Assembly: GCA_947585065.1 (NCBI GenBank)
Contig: CANPWX010000001.1
Coordinates: 7,274 to 71,273 of the forward strand
Origin: an uncultured Bacilli bacterium
GTDB taxonomy: Bacteria > Bacillota_I > Bacilli_A > RF39 > UBA660
Direction: 5' to 3'
Length of the DNA stretch: 64,000 nt
Below the pieces are notes generated by a model. That model made no database searches, was not told where the DNA came from, and saw only the letters and a list, made by a program, of their open reading frames with translations. The position numbers were made by a program, and so were the translations under genes. Positions 5,016-63,174 of the stretch are shown here, piece after piece; the stretch's first letter is position 1; the number at the start of each line of letters is the position of its first letter.

Positions 5016-5026
5016 GGTGAATAATA

Positions 5027-5052: not shown

Positions 5053-5133
5053 TGGTTTAAAATAATTAAACTATTTAAAAAAACTTTTAATTATAATAGA
5101 AAGAAAAAAGATAGATAAAGGGAGGTTTTTTAC

Positions 5134-5865: not shown

Positions 5866-6192
5866 TTTATATGATGCAAGATTTTCAATTTTTATCATTT
5901 TAGACATATTAGGAATTTGTTTATCTGCTTTTATATTTAAAAAATTTATAAAAAAGTTTCCTAACAAGCTAATTCCATTAGTGAATATTAGTATGTCTAT
6001 GATAACAACAATTTGTTATTTAGATTATCATTTCCAAAAGAAAGCACCTATGTTATTTTTAATAGTAATGGGTTTAATTGATGGATTAGCGGCAACGGGA
6101 TTACATCAATTAGTAAAACAAACAAAACAATATATTTTTATAAAATGAAAAATTAAAAATTTTAGAAAAGACAAAAGAAAAATTGTTATGTA
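5858..6192 (+). CDS. Small hydrophobic membrane protein (possible holin-like), 1 TGA
   Basis: The ATG overlaps the upstream stop. There are two to three hydrophobic segments (IFIILDILGICLSAFIF; MITTICYLDY; LFLIVMGLIDGLAATG). The ORF continues past TGA at 6146 to TAA near 6190. Confidence 0.4.
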
Positions 6193-6227
6193 ATTAACAA
6201 TTTAAAAGAGAAAAAGGAGAGATATAT

Positions 6228-9200: not shown

Positions 9201-9377
9201 TATAAAGAAATAGATAAAGAATATGCTTTATTATTACAAAGATTAATAGATGAAGCAAATAGTAGATATTTATGGCATGATAATAAATGGTGATTATTTA
9301 CTAAAGATAATGATGTTCTTTGTTCTGTTGAAGCTCTCATAGATTACTGTTGTGAAATAGTAAAGGGGAGATATTAA
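6228..9377 (+). CDS. Very large virion structural protein (about 1049 codons) formed by TGA read-through of track ORFs 6228-7175, 7338-7643, 7704-8345, 8418-8954 and 9084-9293
   Basis: All five segments are in frame 0 and separated only by TGA codons. RBS GGAGAG then ATG at 6228, TAA at 9375-9377. Late-arm position suggests a baseplate or tail protein. Confidence 0.5.
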
Positions 9378-11434
9378 TGAAAAAGAGATATGAATATTCT
9401 AATGATGCTGATTTTTTAAATGAATTTAACAATGAGAAATTAAAAGAACAATTTGTAAAAATAACCATTTTAGATTGATTAGAAAGACCTATCCAAGAAG
9501 TACAAGGTATTGTGACTGGAGGAACTATTAATTTAGATGGTAATTCTAGTGTTCGAAGAACAGTTAATCTTTCTGCTTTTATAAATGAAGAAGAAATAGC
9601 TAGAGTTACCAATCTAGATAATTTATTTGCTATGAATAAAAAAATGTTTTTAGAAATTGGTTATATAAATACAACCGATAAATATTTACAATATCCAATT
9701 ATATGATTTCCGCAAGGACATTTTATAATGTTTAATCCAAATTTAACTCATTCAGTGGGCGGAAGCTCGCTTCAAGTATCATTAAGAGACAAAATGTGTT
9801 TATTAAATGGAGAGTGCGGAGGTACCATACCCGCATCTACGCAATTTGATGAATATGATACTATTGATGATAAAGGCAATTGGATAACTCAAAAGCCGAC
9901 TTTTGAGCAAATTATAAGAGAACTTGTAAATCATTTTGGAGGAGAACAACTTGGAAAAATAATTATAAGTGATGTTCCTAGAAGAGTAAAAAAAGTAATG
10001 AAATGAATTGGAAATTCTCCAGTTTATTTAATTAATAATGAAGGTTCATACATTATGAGTACAAATTATGCGGATGTCGCAGATAAATCATATCAAGTAT
10101 TTGATTATGGTGAAGACATAGGATATATATATACTGATTTTACTTGTCCTAGTGAATTAATTGGAAATGCTGGAGATAATGTATGTACTATATTAGATAA
10201 AATAAAAAATATGCTAGGAAATTATGAATATTTTTATGATGTTGATGGAAATTTTATTTGACAAGAAATTAAAAATTATCTAAATACAACAAAAGCAACT
10301 GTAGATTTAGAAAAAATGACTAAAGATGATTATTTAATTGATGCAAGTAAAGGTAAAACAGTATACAATTTTAATAATAGTGTTTTAATTACTTCATTTT
10401 CTAATTCTCCTCAATACAATAAAATTAAAAATGATTTTATTGTATGAGGAATTAAAGAAAACGCTAATGGAAATAATGTTCCTATTAGATATCATTTAGC
10501 TATTGATACTAAACCAAAAATTGGAAATATATATGATGTATTTTTTTATGAAGATCCCGATGATGGATTAACAAAAGCAAAAATGCCTATATTATATAGA
10601 AGTTTTGCAGAAATTAATAAAACGCCTGGCGCAGCTGGAATATTTTATAAAGCTACTGATACTAATATAATATATCAATGAAATGGTAATAAAGAAAAAT
10701 ATGAAGAAGTAGATACTGAGACAACTCAATTTGTTAAAGTTCAAACTACGGATTGACGTTCTGAATTGTATTTACAAGGAGTTCAAGCTGAACCTCTAGG
10801 GATAGCTTCAAATTATTATTATACAGAATTGATGAACGAGTGGCCAAAGCTGTATAATTTACAAAAGGATTTTTACATAGATAATGAAGGTACAAAAATA
10901 TATACTGGTGGATTTTATGATGAAGTATTAAAAACTCCTAGTAATATAGATTATTACCTAGATTTTATAGATTCTAATGCTGCGATATCGCAATTCAGCG
11001 TTAATAATATTGGTCGTCGCACTCACGTTGTTAATAGTAATGATATTAATTGTGTATTTGAACCTACTATTCCAGATTTTATAATAATAGAATTAGGTAG
11101 ACCAGATACTGAAGAAAAACGTAGAGAATGCGAAGCTAAAGGGCAAAATTACATTCAAGTGGATACTTCAATATTTAATTTATTAGCTACTGGTGGAAAT
11201 TTAAATTCTGCATATAATGAAGTTAAAATGTTATTGCATGAATATACAAGTTATAATGAGAGTGTTAATATTCAAACAGTTCCTATATATAATTTAGAAC
11301 CAAATATTAGAATTGGCGCTAGGGATATAGAAAGTGATATCTATGGCGATTATATGATTTCTAGTATTTCTATCCCTCTTGATGTTGGTGGAACAATGTC
11401 AATATCAGCAACTCGAGCTTTAGAAAGATTTTAG
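9377..11434 (+). CDS. Structural protein (about 685 codons) joining track ORFs 9512-9706, 9728-10006, 10055-10261 and 10766-11434 via TGA codons
   Basis: The ATG at 9377 overlaps the stop of the previous gene (TAATGA). All segments lie in frame 2. TAG stop at 11432-11434. Confidence 0.5.
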
Positions 11435-11453
11435 AGTAAAAGGAGTGTTAAAG

Positions 11454-12155
11454 ATGAGTTATAAATTCGGACAATTTAGAAAAAGTCAATTGCAATCTTA
11501 TTTAACACCTTTAGAATATACTTTGGATGATATAAAAGTAGAATCAAGTCTTTCTAAAGGAGTTATTTTTGTAGATAAAGGAATTGATTTATCTGGAAAA
11601 AATATATTACAAGCATTGACTGAAAATAATAAACAAAGAAGTTATTATTTAAGATTTAGAATAGAAAAACAAGAAACTAATCAATTAATTAATATTAGAT
11701 TAATTAATACAGATAAAAATAAAGATAATGTTCAAACCATAAAAACTATAAATGTTGAAAGCGGAAAAGATGATTATTCTACATTTGAATTAGTTATAAG
11801 CCCAAATGATAATCATTCTTATAATCAAATATTTTTTGAATTAAATAGAGAATTAATTGATTATAATACTCTTAATAGCGATGGTACTTATGGTAGAACA
11901 GTTAAAATAATAATTGAAAGATTAGATGAAATATATAATGTTATTGATTTTTTAAACCCTTCTATTGAAAATAAAGGAAGATTGAAACAAATTGGTATCC
12001 AAGGTCCTCCTGGTTTATTAATGAGCATTAATGGAGAAGATATTAGGATTGGTAGAAGTGGAATATATGAAATTAATAATAAAATAAATGTTACTTTTAT
12101 AGGCTTCATTATTGAAGCAGATGAAAAATATTTCATTTTAGATTATCAATATTAA
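11454..12155 (+). CDS. Structural protein (234 aa) with C-terminal GIYE motif
   Basis: RBS AAGGAG then ATG at 11454. The ORF is intact without TGA. C-terminus reads DIRIGRSGIYEINNKINVTFIGF..ILDYQY. Confidence 0.55.
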   Translation: MSYKFGQFRKSQLQSYLTPLEYTLDDIKVESSLSKGVIFVDKGIDLSGKNILQALTENNKQRSYYLRFRIEKQETNQLINIRLINTDKNKDNVQTIKTINVESGKDDYSTFELVISPNDNHSYNQIFFELNRELIDYNTLNSDGTYGRTVKIIIERLDEIYNVIDFLNPSIENKGRLKQIGIQGPPGLLMSINGEDIRIGRSGIYEINNKINVTFIGFIIEADEKYFILDYQY

Positions 12156-12168
12156 GGAGGAAAGCGCA

Positions 12169-13434
12169 ATGGAATACAATAGTTTTTATGGAGGAAGAAG
12201 AGGAGCTTCTTTCGTTATTATAAAGTCTTATAAAAGTATTGCTGATATGGTTGCCGCTTTTCAACAAGGTGGAGCTTATAAAGTAGTTAATTATGATGAA
12301 TATGTTTTAATTGATACTGAAAATAAAAATGATAAAGATAATGGTAAAATTTATCGTAGAGGGTATGAATATAACAATTCTATGGGTGGAGCTGATTATA
12401 TTGGACAAATTGTCGGTCCAGCTGGTATGGCTCCGCATACTGAAATGCATACTATTGAAGAAGTAGAACAAATAGCTGAAAGAGATGGTTTTGAATATAG
12501 AAAAGGCAGCGGAAGCTATGATGTTCAAGGAAATAATTTAATACCTGGAAAATATGTAGAACCTGGTTCTGGAGTTATTCATTATAATGATGAAATTAGT
12601 TGAGCTTATTGTTCTGTAAGAGATATCAATTCACATGAATCAACAGCTCATATTGGTTTTAGATTTCCTTATACTGTAATTGATTATACAACTACATCAA
12701 TTAGTACATATAAAGATGGTAATTATACTGATACATCTAGTGCAGAAAGAATTGATGATGGCAGTCATCCTTTTTATGAAAAATGAAATATTAAAATACC
12801 TAAAGGTATTAAAGGAGATACATTAAAGAATTTTAGAGTTATGACTGCTAATACTGCAATTGAGCCTTACTCAGGTAGAGATGATGATATTGCTAACAAT
12901 AGAAAAGTATTAGTTTATGATTATTATATTTATGATGATAAAGAAGATGGAATTTTTAAAACTTATTATGTAGGAGATTATAATAAAATTTCTGATGTAA
13001 AAGTTGAAAAGAATGGAAAAGTTACTATTAGTTATGAACATGATGATGATGATAACTATTTATTAAACATTCCTATTTCAGTTAATATATTAACAGGAGA
13101 AACAGAAGGTAGTGGAAATCAAAAAATTGAAATAACATATGCCGATGGGACTAAACAGGAAATAGGTAATCCACTTAATTATATAATTAAAACTGCTATT
13201 GATAATAGATATCATTTATTAGTTTATTATTCAGACCCTGAAAAAAGAAATGCTGGAACTAAAGTTTCTTGAGATGGAAATGATGATTGGACTGACTTAG
13301 GATATATTGGTGACGGAACTGGGAATGGAGCAGTCGCTGGGAAAGAAGATGACGAAGGCGTTAAAGAAGTTGCTAACCATATGCCTGTATATAGTGTATG
13401 GATGATAGTAGAAGAAGATGGTAACAATGAATAA
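12169..13434 (+). CDS. Structural protein (about 421 codons) joining track ORFs 12169-12603 and 12841-13272 through TGA codons
   Basis: RBS GGAGG then ATG at 12169. Frame 1 is open through four TGA codons to TAA at 13432-13434. Confidence 0.5.
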
Positions 13435-13717
13435 TAATGGATGTACTGGTCAATTACTTGGACCATTTAAAGCTAACGAAGAGTTATATAATAAAATAAT
13501 TGCGGATGCTGCTTATCCAGTATTATATATCAATCATTTGGGAATTCAAACTGATATAAGAAATTTTGTTTATATAAATGGAAATAAATATGAAATTGGA
13601 AAAACAGGTATTTATGAAGTTGGTAATACTGAAATTACTTCTATTTATTTTGAAAGTGATACTGATGATAATAGTATTATTGACTATTCAATAACTTGTA
13701 AAGAAGAAGAAAAATAA
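13418..13717 (+). CDS. Small structural protein (99 aa) with C-terminal GIYE motif
   Basis: Overlaps the end of the previous gene. Sequence includes NGNKYEIGKTGIYEVGNTEITSIYFESDTDDNSIIDYSITC. Confidence 0.45.
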   Translation: MVTMNNNGCTGQLLGPFKANEELYNKIIADAAYPVLYINHLGIQTDIRNFVYINGNKYEIGKTGIYEVGNTEITSIYFESDTDDNSIIDYSITCKEEEK

Positions 13718-13721
13718 AAAA

Positions 13722-13773
13722 GATGCATAAGAGCATCTCTTTTTTTTGCCCTCATTGAGGGCTATTTTTTTAT
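13722..13773 (+). terminator. Tandem rho-independent terminators (AGATGC..GCATCT+T8 and GCCCTCattGAGGGC+T7)
   Basis: Two GC-rich hairpins, each followed by a T-run, after the stop at 13717. Confidence 0.65.
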
Positions 13774-13950
13774 GTAATTTTTTAAATATTATTTTTATGA
13801 TAAAAGTACAATGTCTTTGTAAATAATTTTTACTACCTGATAAATTATTAAATTTTTATAAAAACTTTGGCAAGTTTAATAAAAGAGTTTTGATAAAAAC
13901 TTATATATTACTGAAAGGAAAAGGAATAATAGAAAGGAGTATTTAAAATT

Positions 13951-17443: not shown

Positions 17444-18943
17444 TTATTTAACATCATCACTATCTATTATACTTTTTATGTCAGCAGGTTTTTTATTATC
17501 ATTTATTAGTTTATTTGCGGCAAAGCCTGCTATAATGCTCTTTAGGTCTAGTCCTAAACTATCTTCCGCAACTTTTAAAACTTGGTCTATTTTTTGTGTA
17601 TTATTTTCAATTAGTTTAGAAGATTGGTCACCATACATTGTAATCTTATCAATATTTGATAATGGTGAAGAAATCTCTTTAGCTATTGAAGGTAATACAT
17701 TTGTAATCATTTCAACGATAGATGCTTCGCCCATTTTCTTTTGTGCTTCAGCTTTCTTTTCAATACCTTCTGCTTCAGCGATACCCTTCGCGCGAATACC
17801 GGCTGCTTCCGCCTCAAGAATAGCTTTTTTACCTTCAGCTTCTGCCAATAATTTAGCCTTAATACCTTGAGCTTCTAGTTCTGCAGCTTCTTTATTTGCT
17901 TCTGCTATTGCTATATTTGCTTCCGCTTGCTTTTTAGCCTTTTCAGTTTCAGCTTCAGCTGCTTTAATAGCACGAGTTTTATCTACTTCAGCTTGGACTT
18001 CAGCAGCATATTTTTCTGCATCTGCTTGTTTCTTAATTTCAGCGTCTAATTCTTGTTCCTTTAAAGCAACTTCTTTTTGTTTTAAAGCAGTTAATTTTTC
18101 AGTTTTAGCAACTTCTGCTTCAACTTGAGCCTCATTAATTGTCTTTTGTTGAATAGCATTTTGGATACCATAAGCAGCGTCCGCATCTGCGGCTTTTCTA
18201 TCTTGTTCAATTTTATATTCAGCTTTTTTAATTGATAAATCTTTTTGTTGTTCTGCTATTTTTGCATCTGCTTCTGCTCTAGCGCGAGCTCCTTCCTCAT
18301 CAGCGGCCGCTTCCGCAACTTTAATTTCCTTTTCTGCTTGAGCTCTTGCTATTTTAGCTGCTTTTTGGATTTTAACTAAATTATCAATACCTAAATTTTC
18401 AATAGCTTGATTATCATCTGAACAGCTTTGAACATTTAAGTTTACAATTTCAAGACCCATTGCTTTAATATCATCATTTGCATTTTCTTGTATTTTTTGT
18501 GAAAATAATTGTTTATCATTAACTAATGATACTAACATCATTTGACCAATGATTTCACGCATATTACCTTCAAGAACTTGCTGAACATTAGTTGCGATAT
18601 AACTAGCATTTTGGTTTAAGAAATGTCTTGCTGCGACTTGAATTAAATCAGTATCTTGTGGAATTCTGACATTTGCAACTGCATCTACATCGACATTAAT
18701 AAAGTCTTGTGTAGGTACATTATGTGCTTTTACATCAATTTGTATCAATTCAAGAGTAAGTTTATCTACTCTTTCAAAAAATGGTAATCTCAATGTTGCT
18801 TTACCAATTATTATTCTTGGTTTCTTTTTAAGTCCAGAAATTATGTATACCATATTTGGTGGACATTTTACATAGCTTGCCATTATAATAACTCCAATAA
18901 TTAATATGATGGCGCATATTAATCCTATTAAAATTAAATTCAT
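17444..18943 (-). CDS. SPFH/band-7 (flotillin-like) membrane protein
   Basis: N-terminal TM segment, PHB-like core, and a long Ala/Glu/Lys coiled-coil repeat region (AEAEA..KAAEAE) as in flotillins. Confidence 0.55.
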   Translation of the reverse strand: MNLILIGLICAIILIIGVIIMASYVKCPPNMVYIISGLKKKPRIIIGKATLRLPFFERVDKLTLELIQIDVKAHNVPTQDFINVDVDAVANVRIPQDTDLIQVAARHFLNQNASYIATNVQQVLEGNMREIIGQMMLVSLVNDKQLFSQKIQENANDDIKAMGLEIVNLNVQSCSDDNQAIENLGIDNLVKIQKAAKIARAQAEKEIKVAEAAADEEGARARAEADAKIAEQQKDLSIKKAEYKIEQDRKAADADAAYGIQNAIQQKTINEAQVEAEVAKTEKLTALKQKEVALKEQELDAEIKKQADAEKYAAEVQAEVDKTRAIKAAEAETEKAKKQAEANIAIAEANKEAAELEAQGIKAKLLAEAEGKKAILEAEAAGIRAKGIAEAEGIEKKAEAQKKMGEASIVEMITNVLPSIAKEISSPLSNIDKITMYGDQSSKLIENNTQKIDQVLKVAEDSLGLDLKSIIAGFAANKLINDNKKPADIKSIIDSDDVK

Positions 18944-42695: not shown

Positions 42696-44651
42696 CTATG
42701 AATCAAGTATATCAATCATTATTTGCTCACTAATAATCGGAATACCTAATTCTATCGCTTTTTTATTTTTAGCTGATGTAGAATTTACATCATTATTGAT
42801 TAAAAAATTTACGTTTTTAGACATTGCGGAAACTACTTTTCCTCCATGAGATTCAATTGCTGCAATTAATTCATCTCTATTTTTAAAATGATTTAATTTA
42901 CCTGTTATACAATAAGTATTTCCACTTAAATCAATTTTTCCAATTTGTTGTACATATTGAGCAGTATTTTCTTCTTTAATTGTTAAATAAATATCTACTA
43001 TGTTATCTAATTCTCTGTAATCAAAATTTTTAAGTGATTTATTCATTTCGTAGCCAAAGCCATCTATTTCAGAGAAATCAAAATCCCCTTTGATTGCTTC
43101 TCTAAATGAATCATATGTAGTAAATCTTCTGGCAATATCACGGGCAACAGTTCTTCCAATCAATGGTATACCTGCTCCTGCGATGACAGATTCGAGGTTA
43201 CAAGTAGAACTCCTTCTAATTGATTCGAGAATATTTCCAACAGACTTAGCTCCAAAGCCATCTTTTTTAATCCATTCATTCTTCCACTGTGATAAATTAA
43301 AGATGTCGATGATTGAGTTGACCCATCCCCAATTAATAAGTTTTTCAATAGTTGCTTTTGATAATCCATGTATATCTAATCCTTTCTTACTTACAAAATG
43401 GTCTATTCTATTTACAAGTTTACCTTCACAAGATGGATTTCCGCATTTTAAAACTTCGCTATCATTTAATTTTTCTATATAAGTATCTCCGCCACATATA
43501 GGACATTGAATATGATTAATCTCTATATATGCTTTTGTACGACTATCGTTTTCTTCTGCTCTTGATACTTGAGGTATTATTTGATTCGCTTTGTAAATCC
43601 ATAGTTTCTGGCCTATCCATGGATGACCTAAAAATTGTTTCATTACCGTCATATTAAAAAGGTTAGCGCGAGATACTTCTGTTCCTTCTATCTCAATAGG
43701 TTCAAAAATTACAACAGGGGTTAAAGTGCCATTGCGACTCATGCTAAATTCTATATTTTTTAATGTTGTTTCATATTCATCATCATAAAATTTATATGCT
43801 AATCCACCTTTGAAATGATGGTCTGTGCGACCAGCCGCTACATATTCTTTGATATTATCATATTTAAATACAACGCCATCAATAGGATAACCTAATGCTT
43901 TACATTTAAGTTGTACTTGTTCAATATCACTATCTATATTTCCAACATTTGGAGCTATTGGTACGATTGTAAAACCAAGATTATGGGCGGCGATTAATTT
44001 ATCACTTAAACAACTTTGCCCAAAGCCACTTACAACATCCCATGCTACAAACGACAAACCACGCATAGCACATTCCGCACTATCTAATAATCTAATAGAA
44101 CCACTAGCAAAATTTCTTGGATTTTTATAATCATTTTCAAATCTTTTAAATGTATTATAATCACAAATAATTTCCCCATCTATAATTAATTCATCATTAA
44201 AATTAATTTTATTAGGAATATTTTTAACTACAAGAGCATTATATAAAATATCTTCACCTATAATCCCATTACCACGTGTTTCCGCACTCACTAAGCGACC
44301 ACCGCGATAAGTAAGACTACAAGTTAATCCATCCATTTTAGCCATAGCAATATAATCTTTTCCACTAATAAAAGATTTAATTGCTTCTATTGATTTAGTT
44401 TTATCAAGAGATAACATAGGATGGGAGTGCTCTACTTTATTTAATTTATTAACTACTTGATAATTGATGCGTTGAGTAGGACTATCTTCAAAATATGAAT
44501 TAGTTTCTTGTTCTAATTTAACTAATTTAAAATACATATCATCCCATTCTTGGTCTGATATTTCAGGTTTACCTTCATCATATAATTTAGTATGATAATT
44601 TAATTTATCAATTAAATCTCTTATTTTACTTATATCTATTGCTCCTTGCAT
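42696..44651 (-). CDS. ligA: NAD-dependent DNA ligase
   Basis: Adenylation motif KMDG (AKMDGLTCSL), zinc-finger cysteines, C-terminal BRCT-like region. 651 aa, no TGA. Confidence 0.8.
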   Translation of the reverse strand: MQGAIDISKIRDLIDKLNYHTKLYDEGKPEISDQEWDDMYFKLVKLEQETNSYFEDSPTQRINYQVVNKLNKVEHSHPMLSLDKTKSIEAIKSFISGKDYIAMAKMDGLTCSLTYRGGRLVSAETRGNGIIGEDILYNALVVKNIPNKINFNDELIIDGEIICDYNTFKRFENDYKNPRNFASGSIRLLDSAECAMRGLSFVAWDVVSGFGQSCLSDKLIAAHNLGFTIVPIAPNVGNIDSDIEQVQLKCKALGYPIDGVVFKYDNIKEYVAAGRTDHHFKGGLAYKFYDDEYETTLKNIEFSMSRNGTLTPVVIFEPIEIEGTEVSRANLFNMTVMKQFLGHPWIGQKLWIYKANQIIPQVSRAEENDSRTKAYIEINHIQCPICGGDTYIEKLNDSEVLKCGNPSCEGKLVNRIDHFVSKKGLDIHGLSKATIEKLINWGWVNSIIDIFNLSQWKNEWIKKDGFGAKSVGNILESIRRSSTCNLESVIAGAGIPLIGRTVARDIARRFTTYDSFREAIKGDFDFSEIDGFGYEMNKSLKNFDYRELDNIVDIYLTIKEENTAQYVQQIGKIDLSGNTYCITGKLNHFKNRDELIAAIESHGGKVVSAMSKNVNFLINNDVNSTSAKNKKAIELGIPIISEQIMIDILDS

Positions 44652-49766: not shown

Positions 49767-49773
49767 AAATTCC

Positions 49774-50295
49774 CTAAAAAGTAGGGAATTGTTCATTTTC
49801 TTCAAAAATTTTCTTTATTTTTGCTTCATTATTTACTGCAAGAGCATCTGCTAATTCATTACCTAATATACCACAATGACCTGGAATTTTATCTACTCTA
49901 AAATTAGGATAATCTATTTTACAATATTCCCATATCTCTTTTACTATTCCAAGATTTTCTATTTCTTTATTGCCAGGTCTTTTCCAACTATTAGTATGCC
50001 ATTTATATATCCAATCATTAAACATATTCACACAATAGGCAGAATCTGATTTAATCAAAACATTTTGTCCTTCATATTTATGAACTGCAAGACCAAGAGC
50101 ATGAAGCAATGCTCTTAATTCCATTTGATTATTAGTTGCTCCAACAAATTGTGCTTTATAATCATATTCGACACGGAAACCGCTTTTACGATTTTGGTCT
50201 GGAACTAAGGCGCAAACACCGAAGCCCGCCGCACTATTATCATTTCCATTTCCTTTTGAACTACCATCACAGTATATTTCAACCATAATATACAT
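49774..50295 (-). CDS. rnhA: Ribonuclease HI
   Basis: CDGSSKGNG and C-terminal LADALAV are RNase H1 catalytic-region motifs. Confidence 0.65.
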   Translation of the reverse strand: MYIMVEIYCDGSSKGNGNDNSAAGFGVCALVPDQNRKSGFRVEYDYKAQFVGATNNQMELRALLHALGLAVHKYEGQNVLIKSDSAYCVNMFNDWIYKWHTNSWKRPGNKEIENLGIVKEIWEYCKIDYPNFRVDKIPGHCGILGNELADALAVNNEAKIKKIFEENEQFPTF

Positions 50296-50337: not shown

Positions 50338-50778
50338 CTATTTATTGTCTTTTTCTTTTTCTAAAATATATTTAATTGTATCAGGTCTAGTAGTTATTGC
50401 GTTAGTTAAACTTTCAGTTAATGTTCTTACATTATTTCTAAAAAATTCTTTTTCATCTTCAAGTATATATATTTCTTTTTCTAAGATTTTAATCCCCATA
50501 TTATCTTTATTATAATTATTTCTTTGCATTAAATCTTTATATATTTTATACAAAGGCTCTAATTTATATTCTGCAATTCTAGCTTTTTGTTTCATATATT
50601 GGATGCCAGCACGCATTTCCGCATATCTACAACCAGCATAGTTAGATTCAATTTCTTTATCATCTGGATGTAATTGCGCTTTTCCGCGGAATTGTCCAAT
50701 ATCAGTTGCTATTACTACTATTGATTCGCCTATGTCTTTATTATAATCAGACATAATATTTTTGATTTTAATTTTCAT
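50338..50778 (-). CDS. Hypothetical protein (146 aa)
   Basis: Intact ORF. Confidence 0.35.
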   Translation of the reverse strand: MKIKIKNIMSDYNKDIGESIVVIATDIGQFRGKAQLHPDDKEIESNYAGCRYAEMRAGIQYMKQKARIAEYKLEPLYKIYKDLMQRNNYNKDNMGIKILEKEIYILEDEKEFFRNNVRTLTESLTNAITTRPDTIKYILEKEKDNK

Positions 50779-50790: not shown

Positions 50791-50979
50791 TTATTTAATT
50801 CCTTTTACAATAGTTTTAGTATCTGGTACTAATAACCAGAATAAAAACCAAAACCACCCATTTAATGGAACTGTTATATCTAAAAATTCAGCAGTCTTAA
50901 TGTCACCAATTGTAAAATTAATATTTAAGATATCTATTAACCATAATATAATAAATAAAGTTTTTAAAATTTTAAACAT
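50791..50979 (-). CDS. Small membrane protein (62 aa)
   Basis: Two hydrophobic segments. Confidence 0.3.
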   Translation of the reverse strand: MFKILKTLFIILWLIDILNINFTIGDIKTAEFLDITVPLNGWFWFLFWLLVPDTKTIVKGIK

Positions 50980-51529
50980 TTAATTCCTCTTTCTTTCTAT
51001 CTATTTCTTCAATAATTTCATCTAATGAAACTGGAGTTAAATTATGACTATCCATCCCAATATGATACATATATGGATTATTATTATAAAAATTTGTATC
51101 TTGATGAGTATGACCATATAAATTAATTATTCCTTGCTTATTAGGGTTATCATCAATAGTTCTAGTTATACTTGGAAAATGACTTAGATAAAATCTTCTT
51201 TTCCCAATTTTTAACATATGTGACCATCCTAAAAAAGTCATTTCAGGAAATGCTGTTTTAAGTGCGGTAATACGGTCATCAGTATCATGATTTCCATATA
51301 CATAATATTTCTTACCTTTTAATAATTTTAATATTTCAATTCCGCCTTCTGTGTCACTAAGAATACTATCACCTAGAATATAAACTTCATCTTCATCAGT
51401 TATAATATTATTCCATCTCTTGACAATTTCATAATTCATATCTGTTACATTATCAAATCCACGTCCGCCCCAAAGGAATTCCTTTTTATGACATAAATGT
51501 AGATCTGATGTAAAATAAATCTTAGACAT
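50972..51529 (-). CDS. Calcineurin-like metallophosphoesterase (candidate RNA 2',3'-phosphatase of a Pnkp-type repair set)
   Basis: MPP motifs DLHLCH, GDSILSD, GNHD, GHTH. Adjacent to a Pnk-like kinase. Confidence 0.55.
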   Translation of the reverse strand: MSKIYFTSDLHLCHKKEFLWGGRGFDNVTDMNYEIVKRWNNIITDEDEVYILGDSILSDTEGGIEILKLLKGKKYYVYGNHDTDDRITALKTAFPEMTFLGWSHMLKIGKRRFYLSHFPSITRTIDDNPNKQGIINLYGHTHQDTNFYNNNPYMYHIGMDSHNLTPVSLDEIIEEIDRKKEELNV

Positions 51530-51546
51530 AATTATCTTGCTCCTTT

Positions 51547-52056
51547 CTATTTTAAAAATTTTTCTACTGTAAATGTATTAGTTTCTGTATTATAAATATG
51601 TAATTCATCTATTCCTTGAAAGCCTTTAGGTAAATCAATACTATAATACATTCTTTTTATTGCATCTTCTGGTACTTTTTCACGCCCAGTACGTTTATTA
51701 TTAAATTCAAGTATTTGTTTCAATGGACGATTGATATAAATTACTATAACTTTATCGGGATATGCGCGGCGTTCTTTTAAAGCATTTAACAACTTTGACC
51801 TTGCCGCAGTATTTAATGAAGTTTGGTCTGCTATAACTAGACCTTCTCCTTCATTGAGCGCCGCCGCAATCTCATCAACAAATTTATTATAAACTTCTTT
51901 TTCGTGAGAAAAATAATCTTCCCCATCTTTTAAAATATCATATCTTATTTCATCTCTTGATATATATTTAACTTTATTTGGAAAATTTTGTTTTGCAAAA
52001 GTTGTCTTTCCGCATCCGGGCGCTCCCATCATCATATATAATTTACTCATTCTCAT
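51547..52056 (-). CDS. Polynucleotide 5'-kinase (T4 Pnk kinase-domain-like P-loop kinase)
   Basis: MMMGAPGCGKTTFAKQNFPNKVKYISRDEIRYDI aligns with the T4 Pnkp N-terminus IGCPGSGKSTWAREF..INRDDYRQSI. Confidence 0.55.
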   Translation of the reverse strand: MRMSKLYMMMGAPGCGKTTFAKQNFPNKVKYISRDEIRYDILKDGEDYFSHEKEVYNKFVDEIAAALNEGEGLVIADQTSLNTAARSKLLNALKERRAYPDKVIVIYINRPLKQILEFNNKRTGREKVPEDAIKRMYYSIDLPKGFQGIDELHIYNTETNTFTVEKFLK

Positions 52057-52411
52057 CCACCTCTTTCATTATTCTATGTCCACAATCATTTGAATAATTA
52101 CTATTCCAACATTTACCATTAACATTAAATGGACAATCTACATTAGAACAATCCATTAAATCTTTTATTTCAATTCTATTGCCATTAACAAAACGACCTA
52201 ATTGATATTCTTGTTTAAAATCTTCAACATCATATCCGCCTATTTCTCGTATTTCCGCATGGTTTACTTCTTCTCCACAATAAATGCAATATAATTTTTT
52301 TAAATGTCTAGGACCTCTTTGTTGACCTTTTTTTCGTTGAAGTGTCAATCCTTCTTTTCCACATTTAGTGCAAAAGAATCTACTTGGAGATACACTACAA
52401 TTTTTGCTCAT
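52043..52411 (-). CDS. Zinc-ribbon protein (122 aa)
   Basis: Several CxxC pairs: CTKCG..CIYCG..C..C. Confidence 0.35.
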   Translation of the reverse strand: MSKNCSVSPSRFFCTKCGKEGLTLQRKKGQQRGPRHLKKLYCIYCGEEVNHAEIREIGGYDVEDFKQEYQLGRFVNGNRIEIKDLMDCSNVDCPFNVNGKCWNSNYSNDCGHRIMKEVDENE

Positions 52412-52477
52412 TCTTCATCACCTTTCCTTTACATATTTATTTTATCATTATTTTTATTAAAAATCAAAAAAGAAGAA

Positions 52478-52717
52478 TTAATCTTCCTCTTCTATAAGTT
52501 CATAATTTTGTAACCATTTATCTGCTACGTCTGAGAATTGTAAATCATTTTCTTTAATTTCATCTAGACTCATATCCAATACATCAGCAATATAAGTTTC
52601 TCTATTGTCCATGTATCCAAACCAATTGTCTACACCATTTGCTTCTAAGCATTGTAATCTAGCAGTGTTAATTAGTAAATCTCTTAATTCTTCTGGTTTT
52701 ATTTTAAAATAATTCAT
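52478..52717 (-). CDS. Hypothetical acidic protein (79 aa)
   Basis: Intact ORF. Confidence 0.35.
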   Translation of the reverse strand: MNYFKIKPEELRDLLINTARLQCLEANGVDNWFGYMDNRETYIADVLDMSLDEIKENDLQFSDVADKWLQNYELIEEED

Positions 52718-52779
52718 ATAAAAAATCCTTTCTTTATAATATTATATAATAAATTTTTTAAAAAATAAAAGAAGAATTA

Positions 52780-54039
52780 TTATTCTCCTTTTTCAATTAA
52801 ATATTGATTACTAACTGCTTTAAATGATCTAACTCCATCATAAGTTCTAAATACTAAACCTTCTCTTAAAGTCCCAGGTTCTAATATTGATTCACCAGTT
52901 GCAAAATTTAGCATATCATCAATAGTAGGTAATAATGTCATATCTTCTGCAATTATTGGAACACATGGGATATTATAAGTATTAGTTAATATTTCAGTCA
53001 TTTCTATTGAATTATATCTTTTTGCTACTCTATTTTTATCTCCAACTATCAAATTAAATGCTGCAAAATCATGACCTTTAATTCCATAAGTTTTCTTTTG
53101 TACGCCTTCTCCATAAGTTTCACCTTGAATAGTTACAAAATCAAATTCTTTATATAAATCTAATATATCTTTTAAAACTGCTTCAATATTATATTTTTGT
53201 GCCATTTCAGTATATATATTAGTTTCATAGAATAATTTATCTTCTTTTTCAGGTTTATCAAAACATACATTTCTTGAGCAAACATAGAATTCATATTTGC
53301 CTCTTTTACCACGTTTCATAGTAAATGTAGTAGAAGAACCATCTATTTTTTCAGTTGCTATCCATTTTGTATCATCTGGCGGAAATAATTGAGGTAAGTT
53401 TTGGATTCTTTCCTCGTCTGTACGTTTCACCCAATCTGGCCAAAATGATGCTTTTTTATCGCTCTTTTTTCCTAAAAATAAGAATAATAATTTTTTACCC
53501 CACATTCTTTTATATAACCATTGAACTAATTTATTATGTTTAAATAATTTCCAATGCCTTTGAGCCATTTTCTTATATTTATCGCCGCTAGATTTTCTTT
53601 TATTATCTTCAGCAACAGAATAAGTAACTCCTAAAATATCAGTTAATGGATATCCATCTTCTAACACTTTTTCAACACTATTATTTAATATCATAGCATT
53701 TAATTGGCCCCTCCATACTGGCATTCCATCACCTTTATCAAAATCAGTTAATGCCATTAGTAAACCTTGAGATATGAAGCAACCTTTTCCGCCGAATGTA
53801 TATTTTTGAGTTTTAACTTTATAATGTTTCTTTTCTAAGAAGGCATATTCTTCAGTTTCAGGTACTTTAGAATCGATTTCAAAATATACTGCTAAGTCTC
53901 CAGGCTTGAAAGTTTCTTTTCTAACCATTATTTTCCATCCACCAACTACTGCCGCTTCACAATTATCTGAACCTACTATTGGTTCAATTGTATCTATTTT
54001 TACTAAATAAGCAAGCTCTCTTTTGCCATTTTTTATCAT
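52780..54039 (-). CDS. ATP-dependent RNA ligase-like nucleotidyltransferase
   Basis: Motif I KxDG (ATEKIDGSSTTF) of covalent nucleotidyltransferases. Size and the adjacent kinase + phosphatase genes suggest an RNA-repair ligase. Confidence 0.5.
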   Translation of the reverse strand: MIKNGKRELAYLVKIDTIEPIVGSDNCEAAVVGGWKIMVRKETFKPGDLAVYFEIDSKVPETEEYAFLEKKHYKVKTQKYTFGGKGCFISQGLLMALTDFDKGDGMPVWRGQLNAMILNNSVEKVLEDGYPLTDILGVTYSVAEDNKRKSSGDKYKKMAQRHWKLFKHNKLVQWLYKRMWGKKLLFLFLGKKSDKKASFWPDWVKRTDEERIQNLPQLFPPDDTKWIATEKIDGSSTTFTMKRGKRGKYEFYVCSRNVCFDKPEKEDKLFYETNIYTEMAQKYNIEAVLKDILDLYKEFDFVTIQGETYGEGVQKKTYGIKGHDFAAFNLIVGDKNRVAKRYNSIEMTEILTNTYNIPCVPIIAEDMTLLPTIDDMLNFATGESILEPGTLREGLVFRTYDGVRSFKAVSNQYLIEKGE

Positions 54040-54069
54040 CTTTATCTTTCCTTTCTTTATATTATTATA

Positions 54070-54729
54070 TTATTTTTCTTTTATTTTATCAATTAAATCT
54101 AATAAAGTTTTAAAATTATTAAATTTTATATGAGTACCTTTGACACCGCGGGAATCAACTTCCGCAACTCTATATTCTTTTAATTTATAAAATAATGTTC
54201 TGAATACCGATGTTGATATATTCCATTGCTCTGAATAATAACTAACTCTTATATCTCCTTCTTTAGAACCATTAAATTCTTTTAATATATTATTTAAAAC
54301 CTTAATTTCTGTTTTAGTTAGTATATTGATTAGCTCTTGTTCATTCGACGGAACGTCGAATGAATGATTAATAATGTTATAGATAGCATGATATAATTCT
54401 ATATCATCTTTAAATATATTTTTATTTAAGAATATATTTGTTGTTAATAATTCTTCATATTTTGGATTAATATATTTATATGGTGCTAATACCAATTCTT
54501 CTAAATTATCTTTTAATAAACGAATATCTATTATATTATCATCATTAGTAAAATTTAAAGCAATAGTCATATATAATTCTTGTTGAGTTGGGAGATAACA
54601 TGCGGAAACCGGTATGACATCCACAGTTCTAGACCATAAGTCCGGTTGACCGGTTGCCGCAACTCATAATATTCTATCTTCACCATATATATTAATATAT
54701 TCATTAAATTTATTTTTTAATATATCATT
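54070..54729 (-). CDS. Hypothetical protein (219 codons incl. 2 TGA); N-terminal coding overlaps GC-rich repeat motifs
   Basis: ATG at 54727-54729 overlaps the stop of the upstream phosphatase (ATGATTAATGA). The ORF reads through TGA into track ORF 54070-54624. Confidence 0.35.
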
Positions 54730-55422
54730 AATCATTTATATCATCTTCTCCTTTAAAGTATTTTATTTCAAAAGTATCTAAATTAATGGTTGCCGCCTTA
54801 TTAGAAAAAGCACTACCTAAATCAATATCAATTTTATGACCATTATAATATTTTAATACTTCTAAATTATCATTTATTTTTATAGATTGAACAGGAGTAT
54901 GCCCATGAATTACATACCAATTTTCATATTGATTATTAAAAGAACTATCTAATTTTATATGCTTTCTATCTCATAAAAGAGAATTTTCATCAAGATTATT
55001 AATATTATCAATATCAATTCCTGCATGACTTAAAAAAATATTTTTCTTTTCATTATTTATATATATATAATAATTTTTTATTTTTTTAAGATTTTCAACT
55101 AGAGAAATTTTATCTTCGGCAGAAAGTTTAATATAATCTTCTAATGTTTTTCTACATCCATTATAATCTATCATAATTCCTTCTTCTCTTAAAGAATACA
55201 TAACACCATTATTTATAAAATCTAAAAACATATCTTCATGATTGCCTTTTAAATATATAATTCTATCATCTTGAAACATTTCTTGCATAATTTTAATACC
55301 ATCTGGGCCTCTATCACAAGCATCTCCAAGGTAAATAAGAATATCGTCTTTATTATAATAATTTTTTATTTTATTTCATAAATTATAATTACCATGTAAG
55401 TCACTAAATGCTATTGTTTTCA
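54728..55422 (-). CDS. PPP-family (lambda-phosphatase-like) Ser/Thr/Tyr phosphatase (1 TGA)
   Basis: RBS GGAGGAG then ATG at 55420-55422. Motifs DLHG, GDACDRG, GNHE, VIHGHTP. It joins track ORF 54971-55288 through TGA at 54971. Confidence 0.55.
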
Positions 55423-55511
55423 TATTTATCACTCCTCCAACTTAACTTAATTATATAATATTTTTTATTAAAAATCAATTTATACATATAAGTTCTCAAT
55501 TTATATTTATA

Positions 55512-57058: not shown

Positions 57059-57847
57059 ATGAAATATTGTTTAAATTATAATAGAACAACACAACAAATG
57101 AAATGTATTCAAGAAGCAGATGAATGAACTATTGAATATAATAGTAAAGATAATACTTTATTAGAATTTTTAGAGTTGCATCAAAATATAAGAATAAATT
57201 TATATATAAAAGAATTATTAGATTTAAAATTTTTAGAAGATTTATGTAATAAATATAAAAATTTATATTTAAAATTATCAAAAGAATATTATGAAAAATT
57301 AAAAGAAAATAAAGTGGATATAAGATTTTATTTTGATATATTAGCAACTGATTGAGATACATTTATTGGATGTATTAATTTTGGCGTTAGTGATATATAT
57401 ATTGCTGAAAATTTAGGATTCGAGTTAGATAAAGTTGCGGCAATCGCTCATTCTAAAGATATAAAATTAAGAGCATTTCCAGATGTAGCGCAATCTAAAT
57501 GAAAAGATTCTGACTCATTAAAAAAATTTTTTATTAGACCTGAAGACATAGATTTCTATAGTGATTATATTGATGTAATAGAATTTTATAATGACGATAA
57601 AAAATTAGAAATTTATTATAAAATATATGCAAAAGATAAAAAATGGTTTGGTAAATTAAATGAAATTATATTAGATTTTAATAGTGAATTAGATAATAAA
57701 TATATAATTCCGAGATTTCCAGAAAAGCGCGTTAGTTGCGGTAAAAGTTGCCTAAAAGGTGGGCATTGCCGCCGCTGTGATAGAATTGAACAATTGTCTA
57801 ATACTCTTGAAGAAAGAAAATTAGTTATTAAAATTGATAAAAATTAA
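57059..57847 (+). CDS. Hypothetical protein (262 codons incl. 4 TGA) not in the ORF track because TGA splits it
   Basis: Strong RBS AAGGAGG then ATG at 57059. Frame 2 is open through TGA at 57125, 57353 and others to TAA at 57845-57847. C-terminal Cys cluster CGKSCLKGGHCRRCD. Confidence 0.45.
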
Positions 57848-61918: not shown

Positions 61919-61948
61919 TATAGACACAATCAGCAAAGTAATAATATT

Positions 61949-62018
61949 GGATATTAGTTTATTGGTTAAACATTTACCTTGCAAGTAAAAGAAGATGGTT
62001 CGAATCCATCATTACCCT
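61949..62018 (+). ncRNA. Degenerate tRNA-like element (anticodon-loop CTTGCAA = UGC; acceptor with 2 mismatches; one-nt 8-9 linker)
   Basis: D arm GTTT/AAAC, anticodon stem TTTAC/GTAAA, T arm GATGG-TTCGAAT-CCATC. The acceptor GGATATT/ATTACCC is poor and there is no G3-U70. An 8-bp inverted repeat TAGACACA/TGTGTCTA flanks the element. Confidence 0.25.
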
Positions 62019-62041
62019 TTATATGTGTCTAGCTTATATAT

Positions 62042-62119
<78 letters not shown>

Positions 62120-62122
62120 TAT

Positions 62123-62198
62123 TGCCTCGTGGTGAAATGGTAACACAAACGGCTTTGAACCGTTCATTTTCCTGGTTCGAACCCAGGCGGGGCAGCCA
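62123..62198 (+). tRNA. tRNA-Gln (TTG)
   Basis: U1-A72 acceptor TGCCTCG/CGGGGCA. Anticodon stem-loop AACGG-CTTTGAA-CCGTT. T arm CCTGG-TTCGAAC-CCAGG. Ends GCCA. Confidence 0.75.
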
Positions 62199-62304
62199 AT
62201 GAAAAAATAATATTTAATATACACATGGGAAACGCAGTTGTGACTCGAGTTATAGAACGAAGGACTGCCAGCTTACTGTAGTTGAGAGGTTGGGTAAGCA
62301 TTTT

Positions 62305-62382
62305 GGGGGTATAGCTCTAACGGCTAGAGCGTCTCGCTTGCAACGAGAAGGTTGTGGGTTCGAATCTCCACTACCTCCACCA
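62305..62382 (+). tRNA. tRNA-Ala (TGC)
   Basis: G3-U70 identity pair. Anticodon loop CTTGCAA. T arm GTGGG-TTCGAAT-CTCCAC. Ends CCA. Confidence 0.8.
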
Positions 62383-62387
62383 TTTAT

Positions 62388-62468
62388 GTCATAATAGTTC
62401 AGTGGAAGAACATTACATACATTATTGTATTGTAAAGGTCGCAAGTTCGAATCTTGCTTATGGCTACC
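62388..62468 (+). ncRNA. Aberrant tRNA-like element: normal acceptor, D and T arms, but the anticodon arm is replaced by a 9-bp bulged hairpin with a 4-nt loop (13-nt region TACATTATTGTAT)
   Basis: Acceptor GTCATAA/TTATGGC, D arm GTTC-AGTGGAA-GAAC, T arm GCAAG-TTCGAAT-CTTGC. There is no 7-nt anticodon loop. Confidence 0.35.
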
Positions 62469-62599
62469 TATATCACAAACCTTCCTATTTAATGTGATTT
62501 GCGGGCTTCGATGCTCGCTGCGGAAATGCTAGATTTAACGCACGTTAATCTCGATTAATAAGCGTATGACCTTGATTTCCGCAGGGGGTTTTGAAATTT

Positions 62600-63018
62600 G
62601 GGCTTGTATTTGGTTTCGACTAGATTGCAAGAGTATTGGAATACAAGTAGTAGGCAGTTACTTAAAAGGCAACAAAAAATAAATAACAACATTTTTTCAA
62701 AAATTGTTAGTAAAGTTAAATCTTTATTCGCTGTTAATAGCGTAGTCTTCGCGTAAGGCTAAACAATCTTCTATGCGAAGTATCAGAGTAAACAGAGAAA
62801 AGTATAGTCGTATTAACTAGACAAAGTTTACTATTCTATTGACTGTCCCTAGCCGTGGAATATAGAATAATTTACTTATATGCGTAGGGCTGACTCTAAG
62901 ATTTGTATGTGGTAGGAGCAACAGATAGAACGATATGCACAAAACTTGTAAGGTAAGAATGAGATTTCCAGTATATCCCAATACTAGGACATGGGTTCGA
63001 GTCCCATCAGGTCCACCA
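62600..63018 (+). ncRNA. ssrA: tmRNA (SsrA)
   Basis: The 5' end GGGCTTGTATTTGGTTTCGAC matches the consensus GGGGCUGAUUCUGGAUUCGAC. The 3' end is a tRNA-like domain ATGGG-TTCGAGT-CCCAT-CAGGTCC-A-CCA with G3-U70. An internal open frame ..AAC AAC AUU UUU UCA AAA AUU GUU AGU AAA GUU AAA UCU UUA UUC GCU GUU AAU AGC GUA GUC UUC GCG UAA (tag ending ..AVNSVVFA) lies about 85-157 nt from the 5' end. Confidence 0.7.
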
Positions 63019-63019
63019 T

Positions 63020-63096
63020 GCGGGTTTAGCTCAGTTGGTTAGAGCGCAGTCCTGATAAGACTGAGGTCCTAGGTCCAAGTCCTAGAACCCGCACCA
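63020..63096 (+). tRNA. tRNA-Ile (GAT)
   Basis: Acceptor GCGGGTT/AACCCGC. Anticodon loop CTGATAA. T arm CTAGG-TCCAAGT-CCTAG. Ends CCA. Confidence 0.8.
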
Positions 63097-63099
63097 TAT

Positions 63100-63174
63100 A
63101 CGCTTGTCGTCCAATGGTTAGGGCTTTCGGCTTATATCCGAACTATCGGGGTTCAAATCCCTGCGAGCGTACCA
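63100..63174 (+). tRNA. tRNA-Ile2 (TAT anticodon, decoding AUA)
   Basis: Acceptor ACGCTTG/CGAGCGT. Anticodon stem TTCGG/CCGAA with loop CTTATAT (anticodon UAU). T arm CGGGG-TTCAAAT-CCCTG. Ends ACCA. Confidence 0.6.

Follow-up and report, generated by a model that had tools for sequence, protein, structure and literature searches.

A phage gene cluster combining a predicted Rnl5-type RNA ligase, a polynucleotide kinase and an aq_1665-like phosphoesterase: a candidate set for healing and sealing broken RNA

The subject of this analysis is a cluster of five open reading frames (ORFs) in a window of 64,000 nucleotides (G+C 28%), that is, positions 7,274 to 71,273 of contig CANPWX010000001.1, which is filed under an uncultured Bacilli bacterium and carries the genes of a phage. 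In the order of transcription, the ORFs encode a predicted RNA ligase, a small protein resembling T7 gp5.9, a protein with two cysteine clusters, a predicted polynucleotide kinase and a metallophosphoesterase (MPP) (Table 1). An earlier interpretation made from the letters alone, referred to below as the sequence-only reading, had described them as a split version of the bacterial RNA repair enzyme Pnkp. All five ORFs were found on the minus strand at exactly the coordinates it had given, including, between kinase and ligase, the zinc-ribbon gene (122 amino acids, eight conserved cysteines) and the small ORF (79 amino acids). The genes are tightly packed; the start of the kinase gene overlaps the stop of the zinc-ribbon gene by 14 nt, and 17 nt separate kinase and phosphoesterase. 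None of the five contains an in-frame TGA and all end in TAA or TAG, so that their boundaries are safe under either genetic code that comes into question for this phage. When the 10 kb around the locus were compared by megablast with 50,697 phage records, not a single match was returned and, on that scale, there is no close cultured relative.

Table 1. Features of the repair cluster and its immediate surroundings (positions in the window).
Feature	Position	Strand	Size	Remark
Predicted Rnl5 RNA ligase	52780..54039	-	419 aa	
gp5.9-like ORF	52478..52717	-	79 aa	
Double zinc-cluster protein	52043..52411	-	122 aa	
Predicted polynucleotide kinase	51547..52056	-	169 aa	
MPP, aq_1665-like	50972..51529	-	185 aa	
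Hydrophobic ORF, poorly conserved	50791..50979	-	62 aa	overlaps phosphoesterase stop by 8 nt
Protein p146, no family match	50338-50778	-	146 aa	3' of phosphoesterase
RNase HI	49774..50295	-		PF00075, 1.6e-25; last gene of putative transcription unit
Promoter match, sigma-70-like	54064..54092	-		TTGATA-17-TATAAT, 11/12; just upstream of ligase start
Terminator-like hairpin	49768..49790	-		at RNase H stop codon; followed by 11/12 promoter match before GyrB-like gene
Second MPP, lambda-phosphatase/PrpA-like	54728..55432	-	234 aa	missed by the sequence-only reading

The ligase is predicted to be an ATP-dependent RNA ligase of the Rnl5 family (DraRnl/NgrRnl-type), with Lys231 as the putative nucleophile. 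Its N-terminal OB domain (PF21189, PHA02142 OB domain, residues 10-76; E-value 1.5e-19) is connected by a conserved basic linker to a C-terminal nucleotidyltransferase domain (PF09414, RNA_ligase, residues 225-409 of 419; 3.6e-19), and no C-terminal appendage follows. All matches to solved structures were to NgrRnl of Naegleria gruberi (5cot), found at 1e-28 in two segments covering both domains; motif I, 231-KIDG-234, is aligned there with 170-KLDG, K231 taking the position of K170, which bears out the KxDG nucleotidyltransferase ligase of the sequence-only reading. Among 77 homologues there is no variation in motifs I, Ia, III and IIIa or in residues K231, D233, G234, S255-R256-N257, Q305-G306-E307 and F328-N329, and motifs IV and V, like residues E393, G394, R398 and K407, are conserved in at least 90%. 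The profile matches to phrog_968 (1.6e-57) and to TIGR02306 RNA_lig_DRB0094 (6.2e-24; 84.5 bits, below the equivalog cut-off of 151.15) point to a divergent phage branch of Rnl5, represented by phrog_968. The domain plan and motifs I, Ia, III, IIIa, IV and V are shared with DraRnl and NgrRnl, from which the phage enzyme differs in being about 80 amino acids longer and in having a strongly conserved, basic linker (invariant D145, N146, R148, K149, D153-K156, M158 and Q160) that is typical of phrog_968. The Pnkp model TIGR04075 returned no match with the ligase. Its identification as the DNA ligase of the phage was rejected on account of the RNA ligase scores and of a separate NAD-dependent DNA ligase, LigA, encoded at 42696-44651.

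Rnl5-type ligation is Mn-dependent and directed at 3'-OH(RNA)/5'-PO4 nicks. The characterized Rnl5 enzymes require an RNA strand on the 3'-OH side of a duplex nick and show only feeble activity on single strands, the specialists for loop breaks, such as those in the tRNA anticodon loop, being Rnl1 and Rnl4 (PMC4408790). The Rnl5 enzymes have no biochemically defined healing partner, and their physiological substrates are unknown (PMC5397189, PMC4408790). In Deinococcus radiodurans, DraRnl aids genome reassembly after irradiation, with DNA, RNA or both left by the authors as Rnl5 targets, and the locus tags of the founding Rnl5 gene, DR_B0094, and of the 5'-OH kinase gene, DR_B0098, are only a few numbers apart (PMC5397189). 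That phage Rnl5 genes may also occur in other settings of the RNA-repair type is hinted at by the cultured Sinorhizobium phage phiM12 (L082, 1-6053). Within 5 kb of its Rnl5 homologue are genes for an aminoacyl-tRNA hydrolase, a Macro-domain (Appr-1-p processing) protein and a metallophosphoesterase of a different kind.

The second enzyme is predicted to be a 5'-OH polynucleotide kinase of the T4 Pnk/CthPnk clade. It matches Pfam AAA_33 (1.7e-14), phrog_505 "polynucleotide kinase" (2.8e-20) and the bacterial Pnkp model TIGR04075 bacter_Pnkp (positions 10-136, the N-terminal segment; 2.3e-10), and its nearest PHROG families carry the annotation polynucleotide kinase or RNA ligase, two being larger multi-domain families. 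Matches in the Protein Data Bank (PDB) include the kinase domain of CthPnkp (1.3e-7), Pnkp1 (4xrp, 1e-4) and T4 Pnk (1.8e-5; residues 3-140 against 1-143), as the sequence-only reading had stated for the N-terminus. The P-loop 11-GAPGCGKT-18 fits the pattern GxxGxGK[ST] and is accompanied by the acceptor motif 34-RDEIR-38, Thr79 and lid residue Arg122. Residues G16, K17, D35, D77, R86 and R122 are invariant in 65 homologues, and at R34, R38 and T79 conservation is at least 90%. An Asp-x-x-Arg motif is common to the Pnks of RNA repair, with 35-DDYR-38 in T4 and 38-DFCR-41 in CthPnk (PMC3902929), and 35-DEIR-38 of the phage kinase is aligned to the latter. The sequence-only reading had counted a dNMP or thymidylate kinase, like an ATP-dependent DNA ligase, as evidence against itself. 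Thymidylate kinase is far weaker as a match (2e-4), and this assignment was rejected because the Pnk models outscore those for thymidylate and adenylate kinase by orders of magnitude.

The phosphoesterase belongs, as far as sequence and model allow, to the binuclear MPPs, namely to an aq_1665-like subfamily without assigned function. Matches were obtained with Pfam Metallophos_2 (2.9e-9) and phrog_547 (6.8e-43). The MPP motifs DxH, GD, GNH, H and GHxH are all present; the predicted metal ligands D9, H11, D54, N80, H81, H117, H140 and H142 are invariant in an alignment of 39 sequences, and among 65 homologues from related loci six of them are again invariant, D9 and H11 reaching at least 90%. 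An AlphaFold2 model (predicted local distance difference test score, pLDDT, 94) shows the MPP fold. Its nearest fold is Aquifex aeolicus aq_1665 (1xm7, function unknown; 1.9e-10, with a sequence match at 1.3e-6), followed by LpxH, the MJ0936 diesterase and Mre11/SbcD; the fold search yielded no characterized close relative. No match to TIGR04075 was obtained even at E-values up to 1. Members of the phrog_547/aq_1665 type are widespread in Herelleviridae and other phages, and in Enterococcus phage iF6 the gene is not linked to a kinase. The metagenomic protein P0252 (502 amino acids) joins an aq_1665-type phosphoesterase with a TatD-family nuclease domain, a further context of nucleic acid ends.

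That these genes belong together is indicated by their arrangement in relatives. Viral contigs of up to 240 kb were scanned with the ligase, which gave 80 loci with 49-72% ligase identity. Kinase and aq_1665-type phosphoesterase are both present in 66 of the 80, and in 58 of the 67 loci that have at least 4 kb of downstream flank. Where both occur, they are adjacent (gap below 1.2 kb) in 64 of 66 cases, including pairs located 4-10 kb to either side of the ligase gene. Median gaps are about 50 nt between kinase and phosphoesterase, about 50 nt between zinc-ribbon gene and kinase and about 450 nt between ligase and kinase; the last distance may be as short as 58 nt or exceed 10 kb, with the kinase to either side of the ligase. 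The zinc-ribbon gene lies directly upstream of the kinase gene in 46 related loci.

The link between kinase and phosphoesterase becomes physical in proteins found when the phosphoesterase profile was searched against 1.8 billion representative sequences. In P0267, P0274, P0278, P0293 and P0311 (341-348 amino acids), an N-terminal AAA_33 domain and a C-terminal Metallophos_2 domain form one chain, in the same order as the adjacent genes. The five represent separate clusters at 50% identity (at least five), are known only from metagenomic sequences and contain neither Met nor stop at the domain junction; since the junction of P0311 is also free of Trp, a hidden TGA stop is excluded there. P0293 shares 43% identity with the kinase (4e-33) and 42% with the phosphoesterase (1e-39) of the window, and a scan of the viral contigs with it revealed no relatives. 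Two apparent fusions in loci L009 and L052, obtained by code-4 translation, were discarded, as the TGA codons at their junctions may be real stops. Because of the fusions, the kinase and phosphoesterase genes of the window can be regarded as the split form of a bifunctional protein, and because of fusion and adjacency to a Pnk-type kinase the phosphoesterase would be the partner that heals 3'-phosphate or 2',3'-cyclic-phosphate ends, a role assigned by analogy.

The same evidence bears on the idea that the genes are functionally unrelated, the kinase acting on nucleotides or being of the tRNA-Ser(Sec) type and the phosphoesterase serving a protein or a small molecule. The best single match of the kinase is indeed L-seryl-tRNA(Sec) kinase, both in the PDB (2.7e-8) and in NCBIfam (4.2e-13), marginally above Pnkp, and no substrate has been assigned to the phosphoesterase. 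Given the fusions in five protein clusters, the tight and conserved spacing, the inferior scores of thymidylate and adenylate kinase models and the fact that selenocysteine machinery is not evident in the window, such a chance assembly is highly improbable.

The third constant member is the zinc-ribbon protein. It contains two four-cysteine clusters, of which C14, C17, C42, C45, C88, C101 and C110 are invariant and C93 is kept in at least 90%; a ribbon resembling ribosomal protein bL33 makes up the N-terminal half and the second cluster the C-terminal half. No Pfam family was assigned, and Ribosomal_L33 gave no match at E-values up to 0.01. Foldseek, by comparison, returned almost exclusively bL33 as top matches (E about 0.1, TM-target 0.7), in a profile search L33 entries were the only PDB sequences below E = 1 (E 0.13), and hhalign aligned the protein to L33 with 80% probability (pairwise E 1.3e-5). 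The resemblance of the N-terminal half to bL33 is thus supported by modest but consistent evidence from three independent tests. Owing to the extra C-terminal cysteine cluster, the protein is termed L33-like and not an L33 orthologue. Its identity across relatives is 52-77%, above the conservation of kinase and phosphoesterase.

The zinc ribbon also accompanies the kinase outside the related loci, namely directly upstream of it in the more distant L087 and L089. On the 114-kb contig that encodes P0293 (L087), genes for a gp5.9-like protein and for a zinc ribbon with 51% identity lie ahead of the fusion; in L089 and L090, a zinc ribbon of 86 amino acids, corresponding to the N-terminal half only, overlaps the start of the fusion by 4 nt. 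The robust unit is zinc ribbon, kinase and phosphoesterase, and the link to the ligase is frequent but lineage-specific.

Taking these lines together, it is moderately probable, on the strength of the sequence comparisons, that the gene set heals and reseals broken structured RNA. The locus would then be a co-transcribed break-repair set for RNA or RNA-terminated strands. In a first step, the kinase would transfer a phosphate from a nucleoside triphosphate onto a 5'-OH end, Lys17 and Mg serving transition-state stabilization, Asp35 acting as general base and Arg38 and Thr79 gripping the acceptor strand. In a second step, the phosphoesterase would strip a 3'-phosphate, or open and remove a 2',3'-cyclic phosphate, leaving a 3'-OH; both proteins would be halves of one bifunctional end-healing enzyme, present as a single polypeptide in related phages. 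Eventually, the Rnl5 ligase would adenylylate itself at Lys231 (lysyl-AMP), pass the AMP to the new 5'-phosphate (AppN) and seal it to the 3'-OH, presumably when the ends are held together by base pairing, in analogy to the characterized Rnl5 enzymes. The bL33-like zinc ribbon would be a probable RNA-binding accessory of the healing enzyme. The purpose of the set would be the reversal of cuts made by metal-independent host RNases in structured RNA, either tRNA or rRNA. Kinase and ligase steps are supported by conserved catalytic residues and close characterized relatives. The phosphoesterase step draws its support from the fusion to a Pnk-type kinase and from the analogy with T4 Pnkp (HAD), CthPnkp (lambda-like MPP) and HD-Pnk proteins such as Sophrita gp165. 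Family assignments, conserved catalytic residues, gene clustering, the kinase-phosphoesterase fusion and the linkage of the zinc ribbon were observed directly, and the substrate of the phosphoesterase, its cooperation with the ligase, an RNA target and a role in counter-defence are inferences.

A more specific version holds that the core acts on the ribosome or on rRNA, with the L33-like subunit docking the healing enzyme on ribosomal or ribosome-bound RNA, so that ribotoxin cuts in base-paired rRNA or tRNA would be resealed in place. Such a role is quite improbable at present; if true, it would provide the first defined physiological pathway for Rnl5 and the first function for the aq_1665 subfamily.

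Several points weigh against the healing and sealing of RNA by this set. All enzyme activities are predictions from sequence. The phosphoesterase could be a diesterase or a nuclease instead of a 3'-phosphatase, since it has no characterized close relative, its next folds are LpxH, MJ0936 and Mre11/SbcD, and a weak similarity to PdeM, a ligase-associated endonuclease, is seen in the MPP half of the fusion (1.5e-4). The syntenic loci all belong to one related phage group, and their gene order partly reflects inheritance and not selection. Cultured phages carry the families apart, the ligase being found in Pseudomonas and Aeromonas phages, the phosphoesterase in Staphylococcus and Enterococcus phages and the kinase in Bacillus phages. 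Furthermore, no Rnl5 gene was found near the core of zinc ribbon, kinase and phosphoesterase within 8 kb in L087 and within 16.6 kb in L089 and L090.

This last finding leads to the alternative that the trio is self-contained and does not feed the ligase, Rnl5 being a neighbour by inherited order; the trio might alter RNA ends, or it might eliminate signals of host immunity that consist of 2',3'-cyclic-phosphate RNA or nucleotides. It would explain why the trio, or the zinc ribbon with the fusion, persists in distant phages without an adjacent Rnl5, why the distance from ligase to kinase is so variable and why aq_1665-type phosphoesterases of Herelleviridae adjoin neither kinase nor Rnl5, and calcineurin-like phosphodiesterases have been proposed as anti-signalling enzymes in large phages (PMC7824862). 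A 5'-OH kinase, however, yields a 5'-phosphate, whose best-known use is ligation; every characterized kinase-phosphatase of the clade (T4 Pnkp, CthPnkp) works with a ligase, and the three genes stay within a few kilobases in 58 of 67 loci despite 28-51% divergence of the ligase. A trio independent of the ligase is therefore considered distinctly unlikely.

The surroundings of the cluster raise a further alternative. Beyond the phosphoesterase lie the 62-amino acid ORF, which was detected in only two of the 80 related loci, the p146 gene, whose position is kept in 27 of 80 and whose product might be a further component of the cluster, and the RNase HI gene, which follows the cluster in 30 of 80. 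The promoter match ahead of the ligase and the hairpin at the end of the RNase H gene suggest one transcription unit comprising ligase, kinase, MPP, p146 and RNase H; as 67 promoter-like matches were counted in 6.5 kb where 51 are expected in such AT-rich DNA, the promoter is weak evidence. The cluster heads a long minus-strand block that continues, after RNase HI, with a GyrB/GyrA-like topoisomerase, LigA, DnaB, an SF1 helicase and Pol III alpha.

From this context, a role on the DNA side can be construed, in which kinase and phosphoesterase clean nicks with 5'-OH and 3'-phosphate ends in DNA, as does mammalian PNKP, and Rnl5 seals nicks with a ribonucleotide 3'-end (primer remnants, ribo-patches) as part of phage replication or repair, together with RNase H and the type II topoisomerase. 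Apart from the position at the head of the replication block and the possible inclusion of RNase H in the unit, two observations agree with it: in L087 the fusion lies directly upstream of GyrB/GyrA with no Rnl5 nearby, and the CthPnk kinase was crystallized with 5'-OH and 5'-PO4 DNA oligonucleotides, so that the clade can bind DNA ends (PMC3902929). On the other hand, Okazaki joining is already served by LigA of the phage; the nearest PHROGs of the kinase are polynucleotide kinase and RNA ligase families, and it carries the DxxR motif that Pnks of RNA repair typically have; the zinc ribbon conserved as its partner is of a ribosomal-protein-like, RNA-binding type; and the inherited gene order of a replication module is a weak guide to function. 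Repair of DNA ends is accordingly rated as a lesser, rather unlikely possibility next to the healing and sealing of structured RNA.

As to which RNA would be repaired, the sequence-only reading had proposed tRNA, and had placed the set next to the tRNA/tmRNA region. The tRNA genes and the tmRNA do exist, whereas the adjacency is loose: the nearest tRNA gene (59647) is 5.6 kb from the ligase start, and the main tRNA cluster (61948-63174) with the tmRNA lies 7.9-9 kb away on the plus strand, in a divergently transcribed block. The same arrangement occurs in the five closest relatives only, and any tRNA gene within the flanks in just 17 of the 80 loci. The tmRNA (62600-63018, plus strand) reached 56.4 bits in Rfam (gathering score 47) and was not called by ARAGORN. 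For tRNA repair speak the end-healing and sealing parts together with synteny and fusion; against it stand the weak proximity of tRNA genes and the substrate preference of the ligase, for a break in the anticodon loop is not an obvious substrate for enzymes that seal duplex nicks and are poor on single strands (PMC4408790). Repair of tRNA anticodons is possible, and it is not favoured by the ligase type.

Compared with known systems, the set follows the logic of T4 Pnkp with Rnl1, which repairs tRNA-Lys after PrrC cleavage: a 5'-OH kinase and a 3' healing phosphoesterase prepare the ends for an ATP-dependent RNA ligase. The kinase of T4 shares the fold and the acceptor motif R-D-x-x-R (34-38) with that of the window. 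In T4, however, kinase and phosphatase form a fusion in which the latter is a DxDxT (HAD) domain, whereas the candidate phosphatase of the window is a separate binuclear MPP; Rnl1 (PF09511) is a stem-loop-break specialist, in contrast to the duplex-nick type Rnl5 (PF09414 with N-terminal OB domain) (PMC4408790); and the zinc-ribbon partner of the window is absent in T4.

The order of activities, kinase, metallophosphoesterase and ligase, is also that of bacterial Pnkp from the Pnkp-Hen1 system of Clostridium thermocellum. The phosphatase of the latter is lambda-phosphatase-like, which the MPP of the cluster is not, and its ligase is an Rnl4 with its own C-terminal domain, not an Rnl5 (PMC4408790). 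A Hen1 methyltransferase domain was not found in the nine ORFs scanned between 49774 and 55288. In the Pnkp1-Rnl-Hen1 system the ligase is likewise a separate protein. Judged from these comparisons of phosphatase subfamily, ligase family and Hen1 partner, "split Pnkp" is an analogy and not an identity. What stands of the original proposal, three Pnkp-like activities in separate genes, is the set needed for healing and sealing; descent from a Pnkp-type enzyme does not, given Rnl5 in place of Rnl4 and an aq_1665-like MPP.

Homologous kinases (28-32% identity) that adjoin or are fused with a phosphoesterase and an RNA ligase are found in Bacillus phage Sophrita (gp164/gp165) and in the Staphylococcus phage protein CF1_0047. 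In Sophrita the phosphoesterase is an HD-domain protein and the ligase is of the Rnl1 type; CF1_0047 combines kinase, lambda-like MPP and Rnl1-type ligase in one chain and matches the Pnkp model at 5.6e-19 (kinase and start of the phosphatase segment). The aq_1665-type MPP, the Rnl5 ligase and the zinc-ribbon protein of the window are missing from both. Surveys of jumbo phages describe Pnk, a phosphoesterase (mostly HAD, occasionally calcineurin-like or HD) and an ATP-dependent RNA ligase as RNA repair kits accompanying phage tRNAs (PMC7824862).

A second MPP, which resembles lambda phosphatase and PrpA, is encoded upstream of the ligase and is intact only if two in-frame TGA codons are read as Trp, the gene falling into fragments under the standard code. 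It matches PDB 1g5b (2.4e-7), with the TGA at 54973 aligned to a conserved Trp of lambda phosphatase, NCBIfam PrpA/B (2.4e-10) and positions 225-324 of TIGR04075 (2.9e-4), and thus belongs to the same MPP subfamily as the phosphatase domain of Pnkp. It was nevertheless rejected as the main Pnkp-type partner: only 19 of 80 related loci have it, and its position varies among them, while the enzyme that adjoins the kinase or is fused with it is the aq_1665-type one.

TGA is read as a sense codon (Trp) in a subset of the phage genes, among others in 5-13434 (plus strand), 54070-54735 (minus strand), the gene of the second MPP and 57059-57847 (plus strand). The plus-strand block 5-13434 holds many in-frame TGA codons, with TGG almost missing; in one recoded gene TGA occurs nine times and TGG once. 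The replication genes and the repair cluster use TGG only (eight in the ligase gene, with no TGA). This pattern agrees with the description of stop-codon-recoded gut phages (bioRxiv 10.1101/2021.08.26.457843). Since the cluster genes hold no TGA, they can be translated without TGA-to-Trp decoding, and an early expression of the cluster, ahead of the suppressor-dependent stage, is possible. A suppressor tRNA(UCA) was sought in the window and not found. ARAGORN listed an odd tRNA at 62388-62465 (plus strand) as "Cys, anticodon aca", with a poorly paired anticodon arm or an oversized loop. A relative, L001, has a tRNA(UCA) at 598-692 (minus strand) in the equivalent tRNA cluster; the odd tRNA was rejected as its counterpart, the two not being homologous.

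The product of the 79-amino acid ORF belongs to the family of the T7 RecBCD inhibitor gp5.9 (PF25708, 5.3e-8, N-terminal segment; phrog_6234, 2.5e-8). Its gene occurs in only eight of 80 related loci at varying positions, and the protein probably stands outside the repair chemistry. In L087, the gp5.9-like gene ahead of the fusion is located at 7769-8008, and the gene table of the contig lists a second PF25708 gene at 13650-13871, ahead of LigA. An SPFH/flotillin (Band_7) gene is present in the window at 17444-18943 (minus strand); such a gene lies directly 3' of the kinase-MPP fusion in L089 (8661-10064) and L090, and two genes ahead of the Rnl5 ligase in Pseudomonas phage PAK_P3 (L081, 3412-4263). 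A scan with the PADLOC defence models gave nothing meaningful.

Summarizing, healing plus sealing by phages is already classical, T4 Pnkp with Rnl1 being the example. What is new at this locus is the combination of a predicted Rnl5 ligase with a Pnk-type kinase, the conserved bL33-like zinc-ribbon partner and, as a hypothesis, an aq_1665-type phosphoesterase that, fused to or adjoining the kinase, would effectively constitute a third kinase-phosphatase architecture after HAD and lambda-MPP/HD. The physiological role and the partners of Rnl5 are uncharted according to its discoverers, and the locus and its roughly 80 relatives offer a candidate pathway for it. For the aq_1665-type phosphoesterases, which are common in phages and have no assigned function, the kinase fusion points to end-healing. 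A module free of TGA in a phage that reads TGA as Trp bears on the ordering of counter-defence in recoded phages. Even if the cluster were merely another healing-and-sealing set, it would still extend the catalogue of phage RNA repair parts.

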